In this document: one piece after another, positions 1 through 16,346 of the stretch | Layout of the letters: the number at the start of each line of letters is the position of its first letter | Position numbering within the stretch: position 1 is the stretch's first letter | Assembly: GCA_905200775.1 (NCBI GenBank) | Contig: CAJKLQ010000001.1 | Location: forward strand, 1 to 51,087 | Direction: 5' to 3' | Origin: Candidatus Avelusimicrobium alvi | Lineage (GTDB): Bacteria; Elusimicrobiota; Elusimicrobia; Elusimicrobiales; Elusimicrobiaceae | Length of the DNA stretch: 51,087 bases | The notes under the pieces: generated by a model | Database searches by the model: none | Told to the model about the DNA's origin: nothing | The model's input: the letters and a program-made list of their open reading frames with translations, nothing else | Made by a program: the position numbers and the translations under genes

Positions 1-48
1 GCCTCGTTCGCAACGAGGAGGTCGTCGGTTCGATCCCGATCACGTCCA
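1..48 (+). tRNA. tRNA-Ala(CGC), 3' part (5' end outside window)
   Basis: Anticodon arm CCTCG-TTCGCAA-CGAGG, T-arm GTCGG-TTCGATC-CCGAT, acceptor 3' strand CACGTCC-A with U70 (G3:U70 Ala identity); CCA not encoded. Confidence 0.9.
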
Positions 49-3261: not shown

Positions 3262-4491
3262 ATGGCTAAACTAGTACGCGGGTTTAGAGATATCTTTGAA
3301 CCCCAATCCAAAAATTTTACCGAACTGGAAAACTGCGCCCGCGGCGTGTTTTCTCTTTACGGGTTTGGCGAACTGCGCCTGCCCACCGTGGAGCTTAAAG
3401 AGCTTTTCGTCAAATCCACCGGCGAAACCACCGATATCGTGCAAAAAGAAATGTACGCGTTTGAAGACGCGGGGCACCGCTCTCTGGCCATCCGCCCCGA
3501 AGGCACCCCCGGCGTGGTGCGCGCGTATCTGGAAAATAATTTTACGCAAAACGCGCCCGTGCAGAAATTTTACTATATCGGCAATATGTTCCGGGCCGAA
3601 CGCCCGCAGGCGGGCCGCTACCGCGAGTTTGAACAAATCGGCGCGGAATACATCGGCAATTCAGCTCCGGCGGCGGACGCGGAAGTGATTTTGATGTTAA
3701 AAGACATCGTATCTTCTTTCGGCGCCAAAAATTACAAAGTAAAAATCAACAGCCTGGGGTGCGACAAATGCCGCCCGCTTTACCGCCGGGCGCTGATTGA
3801 TTTTTTGGCCAAAGAAAAAGACACGCTGTGCGAAAACTGCCAGACGCGTCTGGAAAAAAATCCCCTGCGCGTATTGGACTGCAAAATTGACGGCGCGCGT
3901 TTTGCCGGCCGCGTTCCCACGATGGAGCTCTGCCCCGAGTGCCGGGAACATTTTGATGCGGTGCAGGCGCTGTTAAAAGGCAAAATTGATTTTGAAGTGG
4001 ACCCGATGCTCGTGCGCGGGCTGGATTATTATTCCCGTACGGTGTTTGAATTTCAGGCGGGGGACGCTTCGCAAAACGCCATTGCGGCGGGCGGACGGTA
4101 CGATACGCTGGTGAAAAATATGGGCGGCCCGGCCACCCCGGCCATCGGCTGGGCGATGGGCGCGGAGCGCGTCATTATGGCGCGCGGCGAGAAAGAACAG
4201 CCCAAACAAAAAAGCGTGTACGTCGTATCTTTGGAAAAAGCCTGCAACGAAACGGCGTTTAATTTAATGCAGTCCCTGCGTGCGTCGGGCGTAAAAACCG
4301 AAGGCGGCCTGTTTGACAAAAACGTAAAAGGCCAAATGAAGCAGGCGGACCGCTGCGGCGCGTCTTACGCGCTGATTCTGGGCGGGGACGAGCTGGCCAA
4401 GCGCGCCGTTACCCTTAAAGACCTGACGACGGGCGAACAAAAACAAATTCCTTTTGAAGCATTAACTGACGAGGTAAAAAAACTGGTATGA
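3262..4491 (+). CDS. hisS: Histidine--tRNA ligase
   Basis: RPEGT, FRAERPQAGRYREFEQ, LVRGLDYY, GGRYD motifs. Confidence 0.98.
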   Translation: MAKLVRGFRDIFEPQSKNFTELENCARGVFSLYGFGELRLPTVELKELFVKSTGETTDIVQKEMYAFEDAGHRSLAIRPEGTPGVVRAYLENNFTQNAPVQKFYYIGNMFRAERPQAGRYREFEQIGAEYIGNSAPAADAEVILMLKDIVSSFGAKNYKVKINSLGCDKCRPLYRRALIDFLAKEKDTLCENCQTRLEKNPLRVLDCKIDGARFAGRVPTMELCPECREHFDAVQALLKGKIDFEVDPMLVRGLDYYSRTVFEFQAGDASQNAIAAGGRYDTLVKNMGGPATPAIGWAMGAERVIMARGEKEQPKQKSVYVVSLEKACNETAFNLMQSLRASGVKTEGGLFDKNVKGQMKQADRCGASYALILGGDELAKRAVTLKDLTTGEQKQIPFEALTDEVKKLV

Positions 4492-11621: not shown

Positions 11622-12518
11622 ATGAATACCGTACCCATGCCCCAGTGGCTTAAAGATTTGGTGGGCCGCAACAAAGCGGCCCTGCGTTCGTCCGCCGCTT
11701 TGCGCGCGCAGGATTCTATTGACCGGCACGCGCTTCACACCGTCTGCCACGCCGCCCGCTGCCCCAACCGGGGGGAATGTTTTAACTGCGGGGACGCCAC
11801 TTTTATGGTGCTGGGGGATATCTGCACGCGCGGCTGCCGCTTTTGCGCGGTAAGCAAAGCCCGCCCGCTTCCGCCCGATGACAACGAACCCGCCCGGGTG
11901 GCGCAGGCCGTAAAGGAATGGTCCATCCGCTACGCGGTGCTGACCATGCCCACGCGCGACGATTTGCCGGACGGCGGCGCGGCGCATTTTGCGCGCGTCA
12001 TCACCGCCGTTAAAACCTTAACGCCCGAGGTAAAGGTGGAGCCGCTGATTTCCGATTTGCGCGGGGACGAAACCGCTTTAAAAACCGTTTTGGAGGCCGT
12101 CCCGGACGTGCTGGCCCATAATGTGGAAACGGTGCCCGAATTATATTCCGCCGTGCGCGTGGGGGCCGATTACCGCCGCACGCTGGGACTGCTTGAGAAC
12201 TCCAAAAAACTTGCGCCGCATATTTTAACCAAAACGGGCTTTATGGTGGGGCTGGGAGAGACGGACGAACAGGTCAAACGCCTGATGAACGATTTGCGTT
12301 CGTGCGGAGTGGATTTGCTGACGATTGGGCAGTATCTCGCCCCGTCCGCCGCGCATTATCCCATGGCGCGCTACCCGGAGCCGCAGGAATACCGCGCGTG
12401 GGAAGAATATGCGCTTTCCGTCGGTTTTAAAGGCGTGGCCAGCGGCCCGCTGGTGCGCAGCAGCTACCGCGCAGGCGCGCTCTACCGCCGCGCCGCGCAA
12501 ACGGGTTTAGCCAAATAA
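11622..12518 (+). CDS. lipA: Lipoyl synthase
   Basis: CX4CX5C (CHAARCPNRGEC), CX3CX2C (CTRGCRFC), HNVETV, RSSY; start moved to ATG 11622. Confidence 0.97.
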   Translation: MNTVPMPQWLKDLVGRNKAALRSSAALRAQDSIDRHALHTVCHAARCPNRGECFNCGDATFMVLGDICTRGCRFCAVSKARPLPPDDNEPARVAQAVKEWSIRYAVLTMPTRDDLPDGGAAHFARVITAVKTLTPEVKVEPLISDLRGDETALKTVLEAVPDVLAHNVETVPELYSAVRVGADYRRTLGLLENSKKLAPHILTKTGFMVGLGETDEQVKRLMNDLRSCGVDLLTIGQYLAPSAAHYPMARYPEPQEYRAWEEYALSVGFKGVASGPLVRSSYRAGALYRRAAQTGLAK

Positions 12519-12542
12519 ATGTGATATTGGTATAATAAAATT

Positions 12543-12887
12543 ATGAAGAAAAACATCCTTTTCCTGGCCGCTTCGTGTTTATTTGCGGGAGCCTGCGCGG
12601 GCAATCCGCCCGCCTGGTGGAACCCCGGCAACGCCTATTCTTCCGAGGCTCCGGCCCGGCCTTCTTCCGGCGCCGTCTCGTCCGTCCGTCCGGCCGCGCC
12701 CGCCGCACAGGAAGAAGAGTTTGTCCCGCGCGAAGAAGCCATCACCCCTTTGCCGGACGAAAGCTACGAAGAAATGATTTTAACGCCTTTGCAGGATGAA
12801 GAAACGGAAAACGTTTCCGGCGAATCTTCCGCGCAGAGCGTGCCGTCGTCTTCCTCTGTGTTACCGCCTCCGAGCGTGCTGGAATAA
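12543..12887 (+). CDS. Small hypothetical lipoprotein, Pro/Ser/Glu-rich
   Basis: MKK + hydrophobic stretch + lipobox AGAC. Confidence 0.75.
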   Translation: MKKNILFLAASCLFAGACAGNPPAWWNPGNAYSSEAPARPSSGAVSSVRPAAPAAQEEEFVPREEAITPLPDESYEEMILTPLQDEETENVSGESSAQSVPSSSSVLPPPSVLE

Positions 12888-12915
12888 AGCCGTGCGCGTG
12901 CATCACATCAGATTT

Positions 12916-12942
12916 CCGGGCTCTTTTAGGGCCCGGTTTTTT
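12916..12942 (+). terminator. Intrinsic terminator
   Basis: CCGGGCTC-TTTTA-GGGCCCGG-TTTTTT. Confidence 0.7.
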
Positions 12943-12989
12943 ATGGGGGAAAAGCTTACCGCCGGCGGGGGAAAGCAATTTGGCGGGAC

Positions 12990-13026
12990 AAAAAAGAGCC
13001 CCCCGGTTATCTAAACCGAGGGGTTC
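12990..13026 (-). terminator. Intrinsic terminator closing the candidate ncRNA
   Basis: Minus strand GAACCCCTCGGTT-TAGAT-AACCGGGGGGCTC-TTTTTT. Confidence 0.85.
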
Positions 13027-13472
13027 ATCTGGACGTCTGCATTATTACTCCTCACTGCATTATTTACTGCTCAGGACAGGCCCACTGCAACAACTGCCGG
13101 GACTTATGCCGCTTACCGTTTCCACCCGGCCGAAGCAGTTACATCAACCGGAAAGAAACACACCGTTATTCACGACTCATACGACTCCGTTTCACCTTTG
13201 CCGCACTTCACCGCTTTACGACGTTGCGTCAGCGCCCTAACTTCCAGACGAAACAGCACTTAACGCCCTGCCTCATCCGCGGCCGGATACGTCCTGCAAT
13301 ACGCCTTTACCGGCTCCCGGACAGTTACGTTACCCAACCGTCCTGGCCTTGACGAGCGCGTACGCCAACTTCTCCCGGCACGACGCCTTTACAACAACAG
13401 CAACTTTACCTCGTGTTACCGCTTTGTCCGCTTACAGCAGCCCCCGGCGGGCCTGCGGGACGAACTTCCTGT
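12990..13472 (-). ncRNA. Candidate ~480-nt structured non-coding RNA with multiple GUAA motifs (family not recognised)
   Basis: Bounded by a consensus promoter and a terminator; no minus-strand ORF of 60 aa or more in the track; 5'/3' complementarity; 12 GTAA copies. Confidence 0.7.
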
Positions 13473-13478
13473 ATGGAT

Positions 13479-13506
13479 AGTATAGGCGGGTTTGGAAATT
13501 TGTCAA
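13479..13506 (-). promoter_or_regulatory. Near-consensus sigma70 promoter of the candidate ncRNA
   Basis: Minus strand TTGACA (13506-13501), 16-nt spacer, TATACT (13484-13479). Confidence 0.85.
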
Positions 13507-13664
13507 GGGGTGAAATATTTTGTGGAACCCGGCGCAGGCCGTGCAGATAAAGAACCGCTCCCGGAAAACTTTTGCGTCCCCGAATGTTTCTCTCCCAAGT
13601 ATCTAAAAGTACCGTATATTGCCAGGCCCTGGTTGAGGCCAGAGCCCCAAGGCCCGGAGGGGCC

Positions 13665-13692
13665 TTGACGCGTTTTTTTTTTTTGATAAATT
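13665..13692 (+). promoter_or_regulatory. Pilin promoter with poly(T)12 in the spacer
   Basis: TTGACG (13665-70), CG-T12-GA, TAAATT (13687-92, extended -10 TGn). Confidence 0.6.
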
Positions 13693-13729
13693 GGGGATAT
13701 CAACTTATATAAATAGGGGGATATATCCC

Positions 13730-14215
13730 ATGAATAAAAGCCTCGGATTCACGTTAATAGAGCTGTTGGTAGTGGTTTTAATTATCGGTATATTGTCGGC
13801 GGTTGCGCTGCCGCAGTATGAAAAAGCGGTGGAAAAGAGCCGCGCGGCGGAAGCGCTCAGCCTGCTCAAAAGCATTCAAAATGCTGCTGCCGTGTGCGAA
13901 TTGGAAAAAGGAGAAAGCGATACCTGCACATTGGAAGACTTATCTATTGGATTGAATAATTTGGAATGTGAGGATTTAGAATGCAACGGAAAATATTACA
14001 CTTATAATTTTGACGAAGGAATCCGTAATCCGTATGTATGTCCTATCCGGGAAGGATGCAGTTCGTATGTTATTCAGCTGGTCGGCCCCAGTTATGGCGG
14101 GACGCAAGCTAAGCGTATTTGTTCAGGGCGGGATAAAAAGGGGCTGGCGTTGTGTGCTTCGTTGGGAGGAACAAAGCTGAGTTCCGGTTCTTCAGAAACA
14201 GTGTGGGAATTTTAA
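13730..14215 (+). CDS. Type IV pilin-like (PilE-like) protein, Cys-rich variable domain
   Basis: Prepilin cleavage motif G|FTLIELLVVVLIIGILSAVALPQY; SD AGGGGG before ATG 13730. Confidence 0.93.
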   Translation: MNKSLGFTLIELLVVVLIIGILSAVALPQYEKAVEKSRAAEALSLLKSIQNAAAVCELEKGESDTCTLEDLSIGLNNLECEDLECNGKYYTYNFDEGIRNPYVCPIREGCSSYVIQLVGPSYGGTQAKRICSGRDKKGLALCASLGGTKLSSGSSETVWEF

Positions 14216-14216
14216 T

Positions 14217-14253
14217 AAACAAACCCGGCTGCTGATAAGCCGGGTTTGTTTTT
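14217..14253. terminator. Bidirectional terminator (pilin / glyS)
   Basis: AAACAAACCCGGCT...AGCCGGGTTTGTTTTT. Confidence 0.8.
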
Positions 14254-14267
14254 GCGTACGGATAAAC

Positions 14268-16346
14268 TTACAGGTTGGTAATGTCGGCCACCGTTTGGGT
14301 CAGGTAGCGGCGTACGCGGGCCAGAAGCGCCAGGCGGTTTTGCCGCACGGCGGGGTCGTCCGCGTTTACCATTACGTCTTTAAAGAAGTTTTCAAGCGGT
14401 TCCTTAAACGCGCCGTACGTTTTTAATACGCGCAGGTATTCTTCTTTGGTTTTGGCGGTATTTACCGCACAGCCTAAAGAGGAGTCCACTTCGTGGATTT
14501 TATCGTACAACGCTTTTTCGGCCGGGAGTTCAAACAGTTTTTCATCTACGTTTTCACTCACGTCTCCGGCTTTTTTAAGGATGTTGCTTACGCGTTTGGC
14601 GGCTTCTAAAACGGAGGCGAATTCTTCGCCCGTTTTAACGGCTTCCAGCGCGCTTACCAGCGCTTCTACCTGCCCAAGCGGCAGTTCATACCAGTTGGAT
14701 ACGGCGTTTAGCGTGGCGGCGTTATGCCCGCGCTGTTCCAGCACGAGCGCAAGCCGCTGGAATAAAAAGCCCGGCAGTTCTTTCAGCCCTTTGTCCGCCG
14801 TTTGCGCGGGATACAGAGAAGCCGATTTTTCCGCCAGTTCTTTAAGCGACGCGTTCATCCCTTTTTCCAGCAGAATGCGCACCACGGCAAAAGCCTGGCG
14901 GCGCAGGGCGAAGGGGTCTTCGCTCCCGGTCGGGATTTGGCCGATTAGAAAATTTCCGACGAGCGTGTCCATCTTGCCGGCCAGCGAAACGATGCACCCT
15001 TCTTCGGTGGACGGCAGGGCGGAAGCGGACGTGAGGGGGAAGTAAAATTCTTCCATCGCTTTGGCGGCGTCCTTACGGCCTTCCAGCGCGGCGTATTGGC
15101 CGCCCATATAGCCCTGGAGTTCCGGGAACTCGTACACGACGTGGCTCGCCAAATCGGCATACGCGTGCGAAGCCGCGTAATCCACCGCGGGCTTTAAAGC
15201 GGTTTGGCCCAGTTTGTCGCACAGCCAGCTGGCCAGCTTTTGCGTCCGTTCGGACTTGTCAAACATAGAGCCCAGTCCTTCCAAAAACAAAATGTTTTTG
15301 AGTTTTTCTTTGAATTTTTCCAGGCCTTCTTTTTTGTCGTTTTCAAAGAAGAACACGGCGTCTGAAAGGCGGGCGGACATTACTTTTTTAAATCCGTCGC
15401 GCACTTCGTTCTGGTTGACGGAAATCCCGTCGCGCACCGCGATAAAATACGGCTGCAGCCGGCCTTGTTCGTCGGTAACCGGGAACATTTTGATTTGTTT
15501 TTTAAGCACCGTGGTGATGAGGTCTTTGGGGAGCGTTAAAAACTTCAGTTCAAAATCGCCGCCCACGGCCACGGGGTGCTCGGTAAACCAGACGGTTTCT
15601 TCCACCAGTTCCGGGTCCAGGTCCGCGCGGTAGCCGCGTATTTTCGCTTCGTTGGAGACGGTTTTTACCAGCGCTTCTTTGCGCTCTTCCGGGCTGGCCA
15701 GCACGGGCTGCGGCTGGGAGCGCAGGAGTTCGGTGTAATAGGCTTTGTCGGCCTTTTCCACTTTAATCGGCTTGCGGCCGAAGGAAGAGAGCGGATAGGT
15801 ATTGCGGCCCGATTCCACGCCCGCCACGGAGAATTTGATAATTTTCCCGCCGTACAGGCCGATTAAGGAACGTATCGGGCGGCCGTAGCGCAGGCCGGAT
15901 TCTTCCCACACCATATTTTTGGCAAATTCCAGGCCGGTTACGATGCGGGTGAAAATTTCGGGCAGCAGTTTGGCGGTTTTTTCGCCTTTGATTTTAACGA
16001 CGGCGTAAATGAAAGGCCCTTTGTCCGTTTCCACCACGGTCAGCTTTTCGGGCGTGATGCCGTTTTTCTGCGCGAAACCCGCGCTTTGGGGGGTAAAGTT
16101 GCCGGCGGCGTCTTTTAACAGCTTGGCGGGCGGCCCTTTCACTTCTTTTTGCACGTCGGCCGATTTGTCGGCGATGTCTTCCACCACCACCACCAGGCGG
16201 CGGTAGGTGCCGAAAGCGTGTACGGCCTGATAAGTGATTCTTTTTTCGTCCAACAGCCGGGCGGTTAAGGTTTCAAGCTGCTTTAAGGCGGGCGCCATAA
16301 AGCGCGCGGGCAAATGCTCCACGCCGATTTCTAATAAAGCGTTCAT
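14268..16346 (-). CDS. glyS: Glycine--tRNA ligase beta subunit
   Basis: [54 protein letters not shown]. Confidence 0.97.

Follow-up and report, generated by a model that had tools for sequence, protein, structure and literature searches.

On the minus strand of a 51,087-nucleotide (nt) stretch of Candidatus Avelusimicrobium alvi (contig CAJKLQ010000001.1; hereafter, the window), positions 13506–12989 carry the gene of a stand-alone, structured RNA with its own promoter and terminator. The RNA, which we call RNA-A (12989–13472, 484 nt), is a member of a new, undescribed RNA family of the Elusimicrobiaceae that is unknown to Rfam 15. It ends in a tail in which a Shine–Dalgarno (SD) site and a very short open reading frame (ORF), the mini-ORF, stand directly before an intrinsic terminator. 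The original prediction, made from the letters of the window, had picked out the locus as a stand-alone RNA that titrates a protein through repeated GUAA motifs; it missed this tail, which is the most conserved feature.

The sigma-70-type promoter named in that prediction, TTGACA-16-TATACT, was found at 13479–13506 and matches the consensus at 11 of 12 positions; its −10 box and the adjoining ATCCATAC are unchanged across the seven closest homologues. The start at about 13472, with the 5′ end ACAGGAAG..., is predicted from the distance to the −10 box and from the point where conservation begins. From this end onward, RNA-A consists of the 5′ strands of a long-range closing stem (13436–13456, RNA positions 17–37), a central covarying multi-helix domain that contains several GUAA and is missing from the short form in a sister genus (13231–13387, RNA positions 86–242), and the most conserved hairpin, CGGUUGA-loop-UUCGGCCG (13127–13150), whose outer pairs covary and whose inner stem and loop are nearly invariant. 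The 3′ strands of the closing stem follow (13076–13113, RNA positions 360–397), with a conserved unpaired AUAAGU at 13102–13107. The tail begins with a purine-rich linker (13052–13075), unpaired in the consensus structure, which lies between the closing stem and the SD site. The SD core GGAG, inside GAGGAGU, occupies 13048–13051, and the AUG lies 5 nt further on, opening the mini-ORF AUG CAG ACG UCC AGA UGA (MQTSR and stop, 13025–13042). The strong terminator that had been claimed is also present (12990–13023): 1 nt past the stop codon, a stem of 10 pairs, seven of them G-C, spans 13023–12999 and is followed by the T run at which the 3′ end was placed. The locus was also said to lack a substantial ORF, and the longest ORF overlapping RNA-A has 86 amino acids and lies on the opposite strand; none of the five ORFs tested matched Pfam at E ≤ 1.

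Structure, distribution and classification of RNA-A

The consensus structure was computed with RNAalifold from 22 full-length sequences (structure set A4) and comprised 78 pairs, of which 33 showed changes on both sides, compared with 11–21 when the pairing partners were slid. Over these 78 pairs, 95.0% of the cells were paired, versus 34.5–46.3% in the slid controls, and 104 cells carried a change on both sides, versus 16–41. None of 500 shuffles reached the observed structure value on any of five measures, a statistic that has to be read with the kinship of the 22 sequences in mind. The minimum free energy z-score of RNA-A was −3.33. RNA-A is almost certainly a real, conserved structured RNA.

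In this architecture, several covarying hairpin domains sit within a long-range stem, which pairs the 5′ end with a segment lying about 90 nt short of the 3′ end. A pairing of the two ends in three parts had been proposed, and its two inner parts stood: 13096–13101/13443–13448 was paired in 97.7% of cells with two pairs changed on both sides, and 13076–13083/13449–13456 in 94.6% with one such pair. The outermost part (13072-76/13467-71) did not, being paired in 80%, showing no covariation and competing with a local hairpin. Both GUAA-bearing hairpins named at the outset appear in the consensus structure, as helices at alignment columns 140–164 and 351–387. A pairing of the SD site with bases past the terminator was predicted in the fold but was lost in more distant homologues, and we rejected it.

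BLAST searches recovered RNA-A from 36 of the genus's 96 species genomes and from none of 16 genomes belonging to other families of the order. Its sequence identity drops fast, to 66–83% for the full-length BLAST matches. A covariance model of the 3′ 161 positions of the RNA (R1, alignment A2, 33 sequences) matched 84 of the 96 genus genomes and 59 of the 62 high-quality ones. Among 151 genomes drawn from the order, R1 matched 48 of 51 in the genus and one of two in the sister genus (g14), with weak matches in 2 of 17 genomes of g12 and 1 of 74 of a second family. Each genome, including that of the window (G000, 95.7% complete), holds one full copy of RNA-A. The sister-genus homologue (G126) is only about 228 nt long, has the promoter TTGACA-17-TATACT and is without most of the GUAA-bearing domains; the closing stem, the AUAAGU bulge and the GGUUGA hairpin, all of which adjoin the tail, are retained.

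In the RNA libraries X16, X17 and X19, which come from three studies, the only contigs over 12300–14400 covered 13022–13457, 13033–13451 and 13037–13465; exactly the RNA-A stretch is present in RNA libraries. The flanking genes were uncovered in these three libraries, which is no evidence of their silence. The presence of the RNA in nearly all high-quality genomes of the genus, together with its seeming abundance, suggests that it likely has a central role.

No Rfam family was found to fit. At the gathering score, the sole Rfam 15 match in the whole window was a cut tRNA (positions 1–48, plus strand, 31.1 bits), the 3′ part of a tRNA gene truncated by the window start. At E ≤ 10, nine matches were obtained in 12850–13760, all on the flanking terminators and none within the RNA body, so that RNA-A is without an Rfam match at either level, the check that had been suggested for its novelty. 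The models for tmRNA, RNase P RNA, signal recognition particle (SRP) RNA and 6S RNA, whose hallmarks the RNA had been said to lack, were likewise without a match in 12850–13760 at E ≤ 10. A diverged RNase P RNA or tmRNA was ruled out because both sit elsewhere in the genome, on other contigs (G000:C26, 192 bits, and G000:C19, 128 bits, respectively). The Rfam models for 6S and for small and large SRP RNA gave no match anywhere in G000. The small-SRP model matched none of 145 family genomes and none of 151 drawn from the order, single-contig ones included, and crude regular expressions for the SRP helix-8 motif returned nothing convincing; either the SRP RNA of the order is very divergent or the first filter of the search misses it. 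The idea that RNA-A is a disguised SRP RNA was dropped, because families without RNA-A give the same blank result, which is therefore uninformative about RNA-A. Literature searches, with supplementary files outside their scope, found no paper on such an RNA, and next to no RNA biology is recorded for the phylum.

The mini-ORF and its recurrence in paralogous RNAs

We examined the tail at 83 loci, 82 in the genus and the sister-genus homologue, which were the 86 model matches minus three matches to a terminator on the reverse strand. At all 83, an SD-like motif stood 3–10 nt before an ATG that opened a frame of 4–10 sense codons, and the stop codon ended 0–3 nt before the terminator stem or its C run. 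The mini-ORF is universally conserved in the loci examined. Among the 56 distinct ORFs, 46 have five codons, and the stop codon is TGA in 34, TAA in 11 and TAG in 11; changes in length preserve the frame. The 50 distinct peptides share no residue after Met, as seen from examples such as MQTSR (here), METSR (at 10 loci), MKEST (at 9), MNSSN, MSNR, MKVHS, MHSCK and MSSCCSCS, and 10 of the 56 ORFs end in Asn. Third codon positions were the most variable (1.77–1.93 bits), and codons 2 and 5 were A-rich at positions 1 and 2. Between ORFs that are single-base neighbours there were five synonymous and eight non-synonymous changes, which at such a size is not distinguishable from the neutral expectation. 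In g14, the frames of all three matches read had six codons (MSKLTN, MSTLMN and MSELTN).

The 16S ribosomal RNA of G000 ends in the canonical CCUCC anti-SD sequence, and an SD-like motif was found upstream of 333 of 804 long ORFs, compared with 57 of 804 random places; this organism uses SD sites. Judging from the layout of the tail, ribosomes probably engage the mini-ORF.

Many of the mini-ORFs also hold a palindromic hexamer, GACGUC in RNA-A (13030–13035 of the window, within 13025–13042) and GUCGAC in the paralogue RNA-B and in mini-ORFs of the MKEST form. In diverged species an AGUUGU motif is found instead, yielding Ser-Cys peptides. These motifs may serve as signals at the RNA level instead of reflecting constraints on coding.

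A broader model, R2, built from 80 sequences and less specific than R1, found the paralogue RNA-B in G000 (contig C69, about 4011–4419, minus strand; L253 212–620; L264 1501–1909). RNA-B has a TTGATT-16-TATACT promoter, a length of about 410 nt, the six-codon frame AUG GAA GAG UCG ACU AAA UGA (MEESTK) and a terminator, and it has no match in Rfam. It lies downstream of a helix–turn–helix gene and faces a convergent pilin-like gene; many genus genomes conserve it. When 23 secondary loci were examined, 16 were of the RNA-B type, with peptides such as MEESTR, MEQSTN and MNQLTQ and with the promoter conserved in most, three belonged to a shorter third type and four were non-members. The third type (L283, L284 and L285, at G102:C2, G052:C2 and G017:C137) is about 200 nt long, and its frame before the terminator reads AUG AAA AUG ACA UAC AUG AGC UAA. 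Outside the genus, R2 had matches in g12, g15, g17 and g25, of which three in g12 were read; the tally of 29 of 34 in g12 is probably false, the three matches read (G162, G132 and G136) being without an ATG or a stop codon. A scan of G000 for an SD site, an ATG, 3–11 codons, a stop codon and a terminator gave eight places, of which only the window locus was also an R2 match; RNA-B escaped the scan owing to its weaker SD site. Because there were only eight such places, the layout is not common in the genome.

Genomic neighbourhood

At most of the 34 loci compared, glyS is followed by the RNA, which points the same way, and then, in convergent orientation, by a lipoprotein-like gene and a radical S-adenosylmethionine (SAM) gene; in the genome of the window, a pilin-like gene is inserted between glyS and RNA-A. 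The gene downstream of the RNA is convergent at all three loci that were examined in detail (RNA-A, G126 and RNA-B), and the downstream genes differ between genera. In the window, the convergent neighbour is an ORF of 114 amino acids (12543–12887, plus strand) with a signal peptide, a lipobox-like AGAC and a low-complexity tail rich in Pro, Ser and Glu. It has no Pfam match, and its convergent position to the RNA is kept across the genus.

Terminator-like hairpins on the plus strand flank the RNA gene. One follows the lipoprotein-like gene (12916–12936); the second (13648–13667) shortly precedes the pilin-like gene and would there stop antisense transcription through the RNA gene. The pilin-like gene (13729–14215, plus strand) adjoins RNA-A here, and such a gene also adjoins RNA-B and the G126 homologue, but not RNA-A in most genomes of the genus. 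The N-terminal methylation motif of pilin-like proteins has 101 matches in the 1.63-Mb genome, and many contigs start at such genes; the adjacency may be due to chance.

Candidate functions and comparison with known systems

The original prediction had rested on GUAA. We confirmed that the minus strand has 12 copies from 13045 to 13435, where about 1.4 would be expected from the rate in the window (364 on both strands of 51,087 bases), and the longer repeats that had been listed are all present, namely three GUGAA, two GUAAAGGCGU, three GUAA(A)GCGG and two AAUAAUGCAG, the second of which includes the start codon of the mini-ORF. The excess is smaller against dinucleotide shuffles of the RNA itself than against the window rate: the 424-nt body holds 11 GUAA, above any of 200 shuffles (mean 4.4, maximum 8). 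Several of the GUAA lie in loops or junctions, and the related AAGCGG recurs three to four times in the close clade, as might be expected of an RNA that, like CsrB/RsmZ, titrates another RNA-binding protein. Across 36 sequences, however, the body contains 0–11 GUAA (0–10 in the homologues, with shuffle means of 0.65–5.1), only G000 exceeds all of its own shuffles, and G024 has none. One of these 36 rows (G008, L015) is a promoter-only match at a different locus, the true G008 copy of RNA-A lying on another contig. Of the 12 sites, only 4 read GUAA in 9 or more of 22 close homologues. At RNA position 140, the GUAA in the loop is replaced by GUUA in 18 of the 22, and the site at RNA position 54 is GUGA in 9 and GUAA in 5, the behaviour of a GNRA-type loop; such loops are ordinary in large folded RNAs. 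The sister-genus form is without the GUAA-carrying domains, and G000, at its completeness of 95.7%, gave no match to CsrA (PF02599) or Hfq (PF17209). The stand-alone, structured and expressed RNA was upheld, whereas the GUAA sponge was not, because a sponge motif should be kept in relatives, the test that had been set beforehand, and neither the number nor the sites of GUAA are. We consider a GUAA sponge highly improbable. Motif counts from one genome, here 12 GUAA, can mislead.

A closer parallel to the tail is found in mccA. In the short mccA transcript, Zukher et al. (2014; PMC4231749) report, an intrinsic terminator comes after a seven-codon ORF, and the binding of ribosomes to that ORF both triggers termination and renders the RNA very stable and abundant; PMC6495379 adds that the length of the frame is conserved and the peptide sequence is not. 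We tentatively propose that RNA-A is folded and acts in trans, and that its tail serves as a ribosome-docking module that controls 3′-end formation and the lifetime of the RNA. The module would comprise the unpaired purine-rich linker, the SD site, the AUG, four codons, the stop codon and the terminator. Having loaded on the very short frame, ribosomes would reach its end with their leading edge at the base of the terminator hairpin, such that a ribosome terminating on the mini-ORF would have to sit on the 5′ arm of the hairpin. Docking would determine the formation of the 3′ end and the lifetime of the RNA, as experiments showed for mccA, and the folded body would do the trans-acting work by binding a protein or an RNA. 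Translation of the frame, its influence on termination or stability and a trans-acting role of the body are all inferred; that docking serves termination or stability is a suggestion we hold about as tentatively as the whole, or slightly more so.

Several observations weigh against this proposal. Translation of the mini-ORF is deduced from the sequence alone, and triplet periodicity and the recurrence of Ser, Thr and Cys would fit a functional peptide equally well. In the predicted fold, the terminator forms with no ribosome present, and the folds revealed no conserved segment upstream that would weaken it as in mccA. Because the terminator folds alone and such a segment was not seen, ribosome-induced termination has no specific support; in addition, because the SD site lies only about 60 nt before the end, a pause of the polymerase would be needed for a ribosome to act co-transcriptionally. 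The RNA-library contigs show neither the strand nor the exact ends nor the level of an RNA, and in a further library, X15, a contig of 1,687 bases covers 12300–13447, running over the radical-SAM and lipoprotein-like genes and reaching into the RNA gene. This contig may represent DNA in the library or a longer transcript of either strand.

The same tail could also be read as a device that acts on the ribosome itself: the SD site and AUG would dock a ribosomal particle (30S or 70S), the hairpin some 19 nt downstream would hold it, and the body, which would be positioned immediately upstream where the mRNA leaves the small subunit, would park, sequester or modulate it. We regard this as unlikely, although the mini-ORF and its distance from the hairpin are kept at all 83 loci while the peptide varies, the most conserved parts of the body adjoin the tail and survive in the 228-nt form, at least two paralogues have the same layout, and the RNA is abundant enough to be the sole assembled part of 2.1 kb in three studies. 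Bodies that differ as widely as about 228 to 530 nt would be odd for a part fitting a fixed ribosomal surface, and we know of no example for comparison. It is equally doubtful that the Elusimicrobiaceae possess here an RNA family, with at least two paralogues per genome, that captures and holds or modulates ribosomes; if they do, this would be RNA-based parking or tuning of ribosomes in bacteria that yielded neither an Hfq nor a CsrA gene. Were RNA-A instead the messenger of a tiny functional peptide, acting as a signal or, like MccA, as a substrate for modification, its folded 5′ part would be a long regulatory leader. The variability of third codon positions, the similarity of peptides within clades (METSR and MKEST at multiple loci; MEESTR and MEQSTN in the paralogue) and their richness in Ser, Thr, Cys, Lys and Asn, still seen in MHSCK, MYSCC and MSSCCSCS of diverged species, are consistent with this, as is the 5:8 ratio of synonymous to non-synonymous neighbours, and the mccA literature indicates that ribosomal peptides of seven residues can be functional. 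That ratio, however, cannot be told apart from the neutral expectation at its size, and 50 peptides of 4–10 residues in one genus without an invariant residue after Met speak against a defined product. MccA requires a terminal Asn, which few of the ORFs encode. There is also no co-directional downstream gene, the neighbours being convergent and differing between genera, and the covarying body exceeds by far the complexity that a leader would require. We consider a peptide messenger quite unlikely.

A cis-acting attenuator would place the decision at the terminator: the body would sense a signal, the ribosome on the mini-ORF would decide whether the terminator forms, and read-through would produce RNA antisense to the convergent genes. 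With the stop codon 0–3 nt from the stem, a terminating ribosome would indeed cover the 5′ arm, and the convergent downstream gene at all three loci, together with the order of glyS, RNA and convergent gene at most of the 34, would suit such a role. The G126 homologue resembles the Rfam leader models for Leu, Phe, His and Trp weakly and below threshold (E 0.047–5.4, 13–21 bits, against gathering scores of 41–55), which reflects the same layout. Against this, none of the X16, X17 and X19 contigs goes past 13022, although rare forms may escape assembly into contigs; the folds revealed no conserved alternative pairing that would act as an anti-terminator, no single amino acid is over-represented among the codons, and the genes that would be regulated differ between genera. 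We therefore hold attenuation in cis to be very unlikely.

Among known systems, the tail of RNA-A is closest to mccA: in both, an SD site and a very short ORF stand directly before an intrinsic terminator, as at all 83 loci here, length rather than sequence is kept, and the short transcript is abundant, or seemingly so in the case of RNA-A. The frame differs from that of mccA in having mostly five codons rather than seven and a variable last residue. Moreover, it is followed not by a co-directional biosynthetic operon but by convergent lipoprotein-like and radical-SAM genes (no genome search for mccB was made), and it is preceded by about 430 nt of conserved, covarying structure, with no sign that upstream sequence weakens the terminator.

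Several other groups of RNAs share parts of this design. CsrB/RsmZ-type RNAs are stand-alone molecules of several hundred nt with many hairpins, their own promoter and terminator and paralogues in one genome. RNA-A resembles them in each of these respects, but it has no repeated motif conserved across homologues, its genome yielded no CsrA gene, and it carries a conserved, translated-looking frame that is absent from them. RNAIII, SgrS and SR1 are dual-function small RNAs that encode defined, conserved peptides of about 26–43 residues in an ORF inside the RNA; RNA-A, too, is a structured and putatively regulatory RNA with a small ORF, but one of 4–10 codons, variable in sequence (50 peptides at 83 loci) and fixed in position against the terminator. 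Leader-peptide attenuators, which include trans-acting leader RNAs such as rnTrpL, likewise bring an SD site, a short frame and an intrinsic terminator close together. RNA-A differs from them in lacking a co-directional operon, a run of regulatory codons and conserved alternative hairpins, as well as in its much larger body, and the leader models have no match inside the RNA-A of the window at E ≤ 10. OLE, GOLLD, ROOL and raiA are large bacterial RNAs of unknown function, all of them represented in Rfam. Like these, RNA-A is long, lineage-restricted, strongly covarying and abundant, but it matches no Rfam model at E ≤ 10, and to our knowledge none of them ends in a conserved mini-ORF.

The precedents are partial, consisting of structured small RNAs with a short frame on the one hand and a ribosome-controlled terminator on the other. 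A mini-ORF pressed against a terminator is a clean and testable design that has until now been known mainly from one antibiotic operon. That it occurs in paralogous copies on large RNAs with covarying structure suggests that the docking of ribosomes can serve bacterial non-coding RNAs as a general accessory module.

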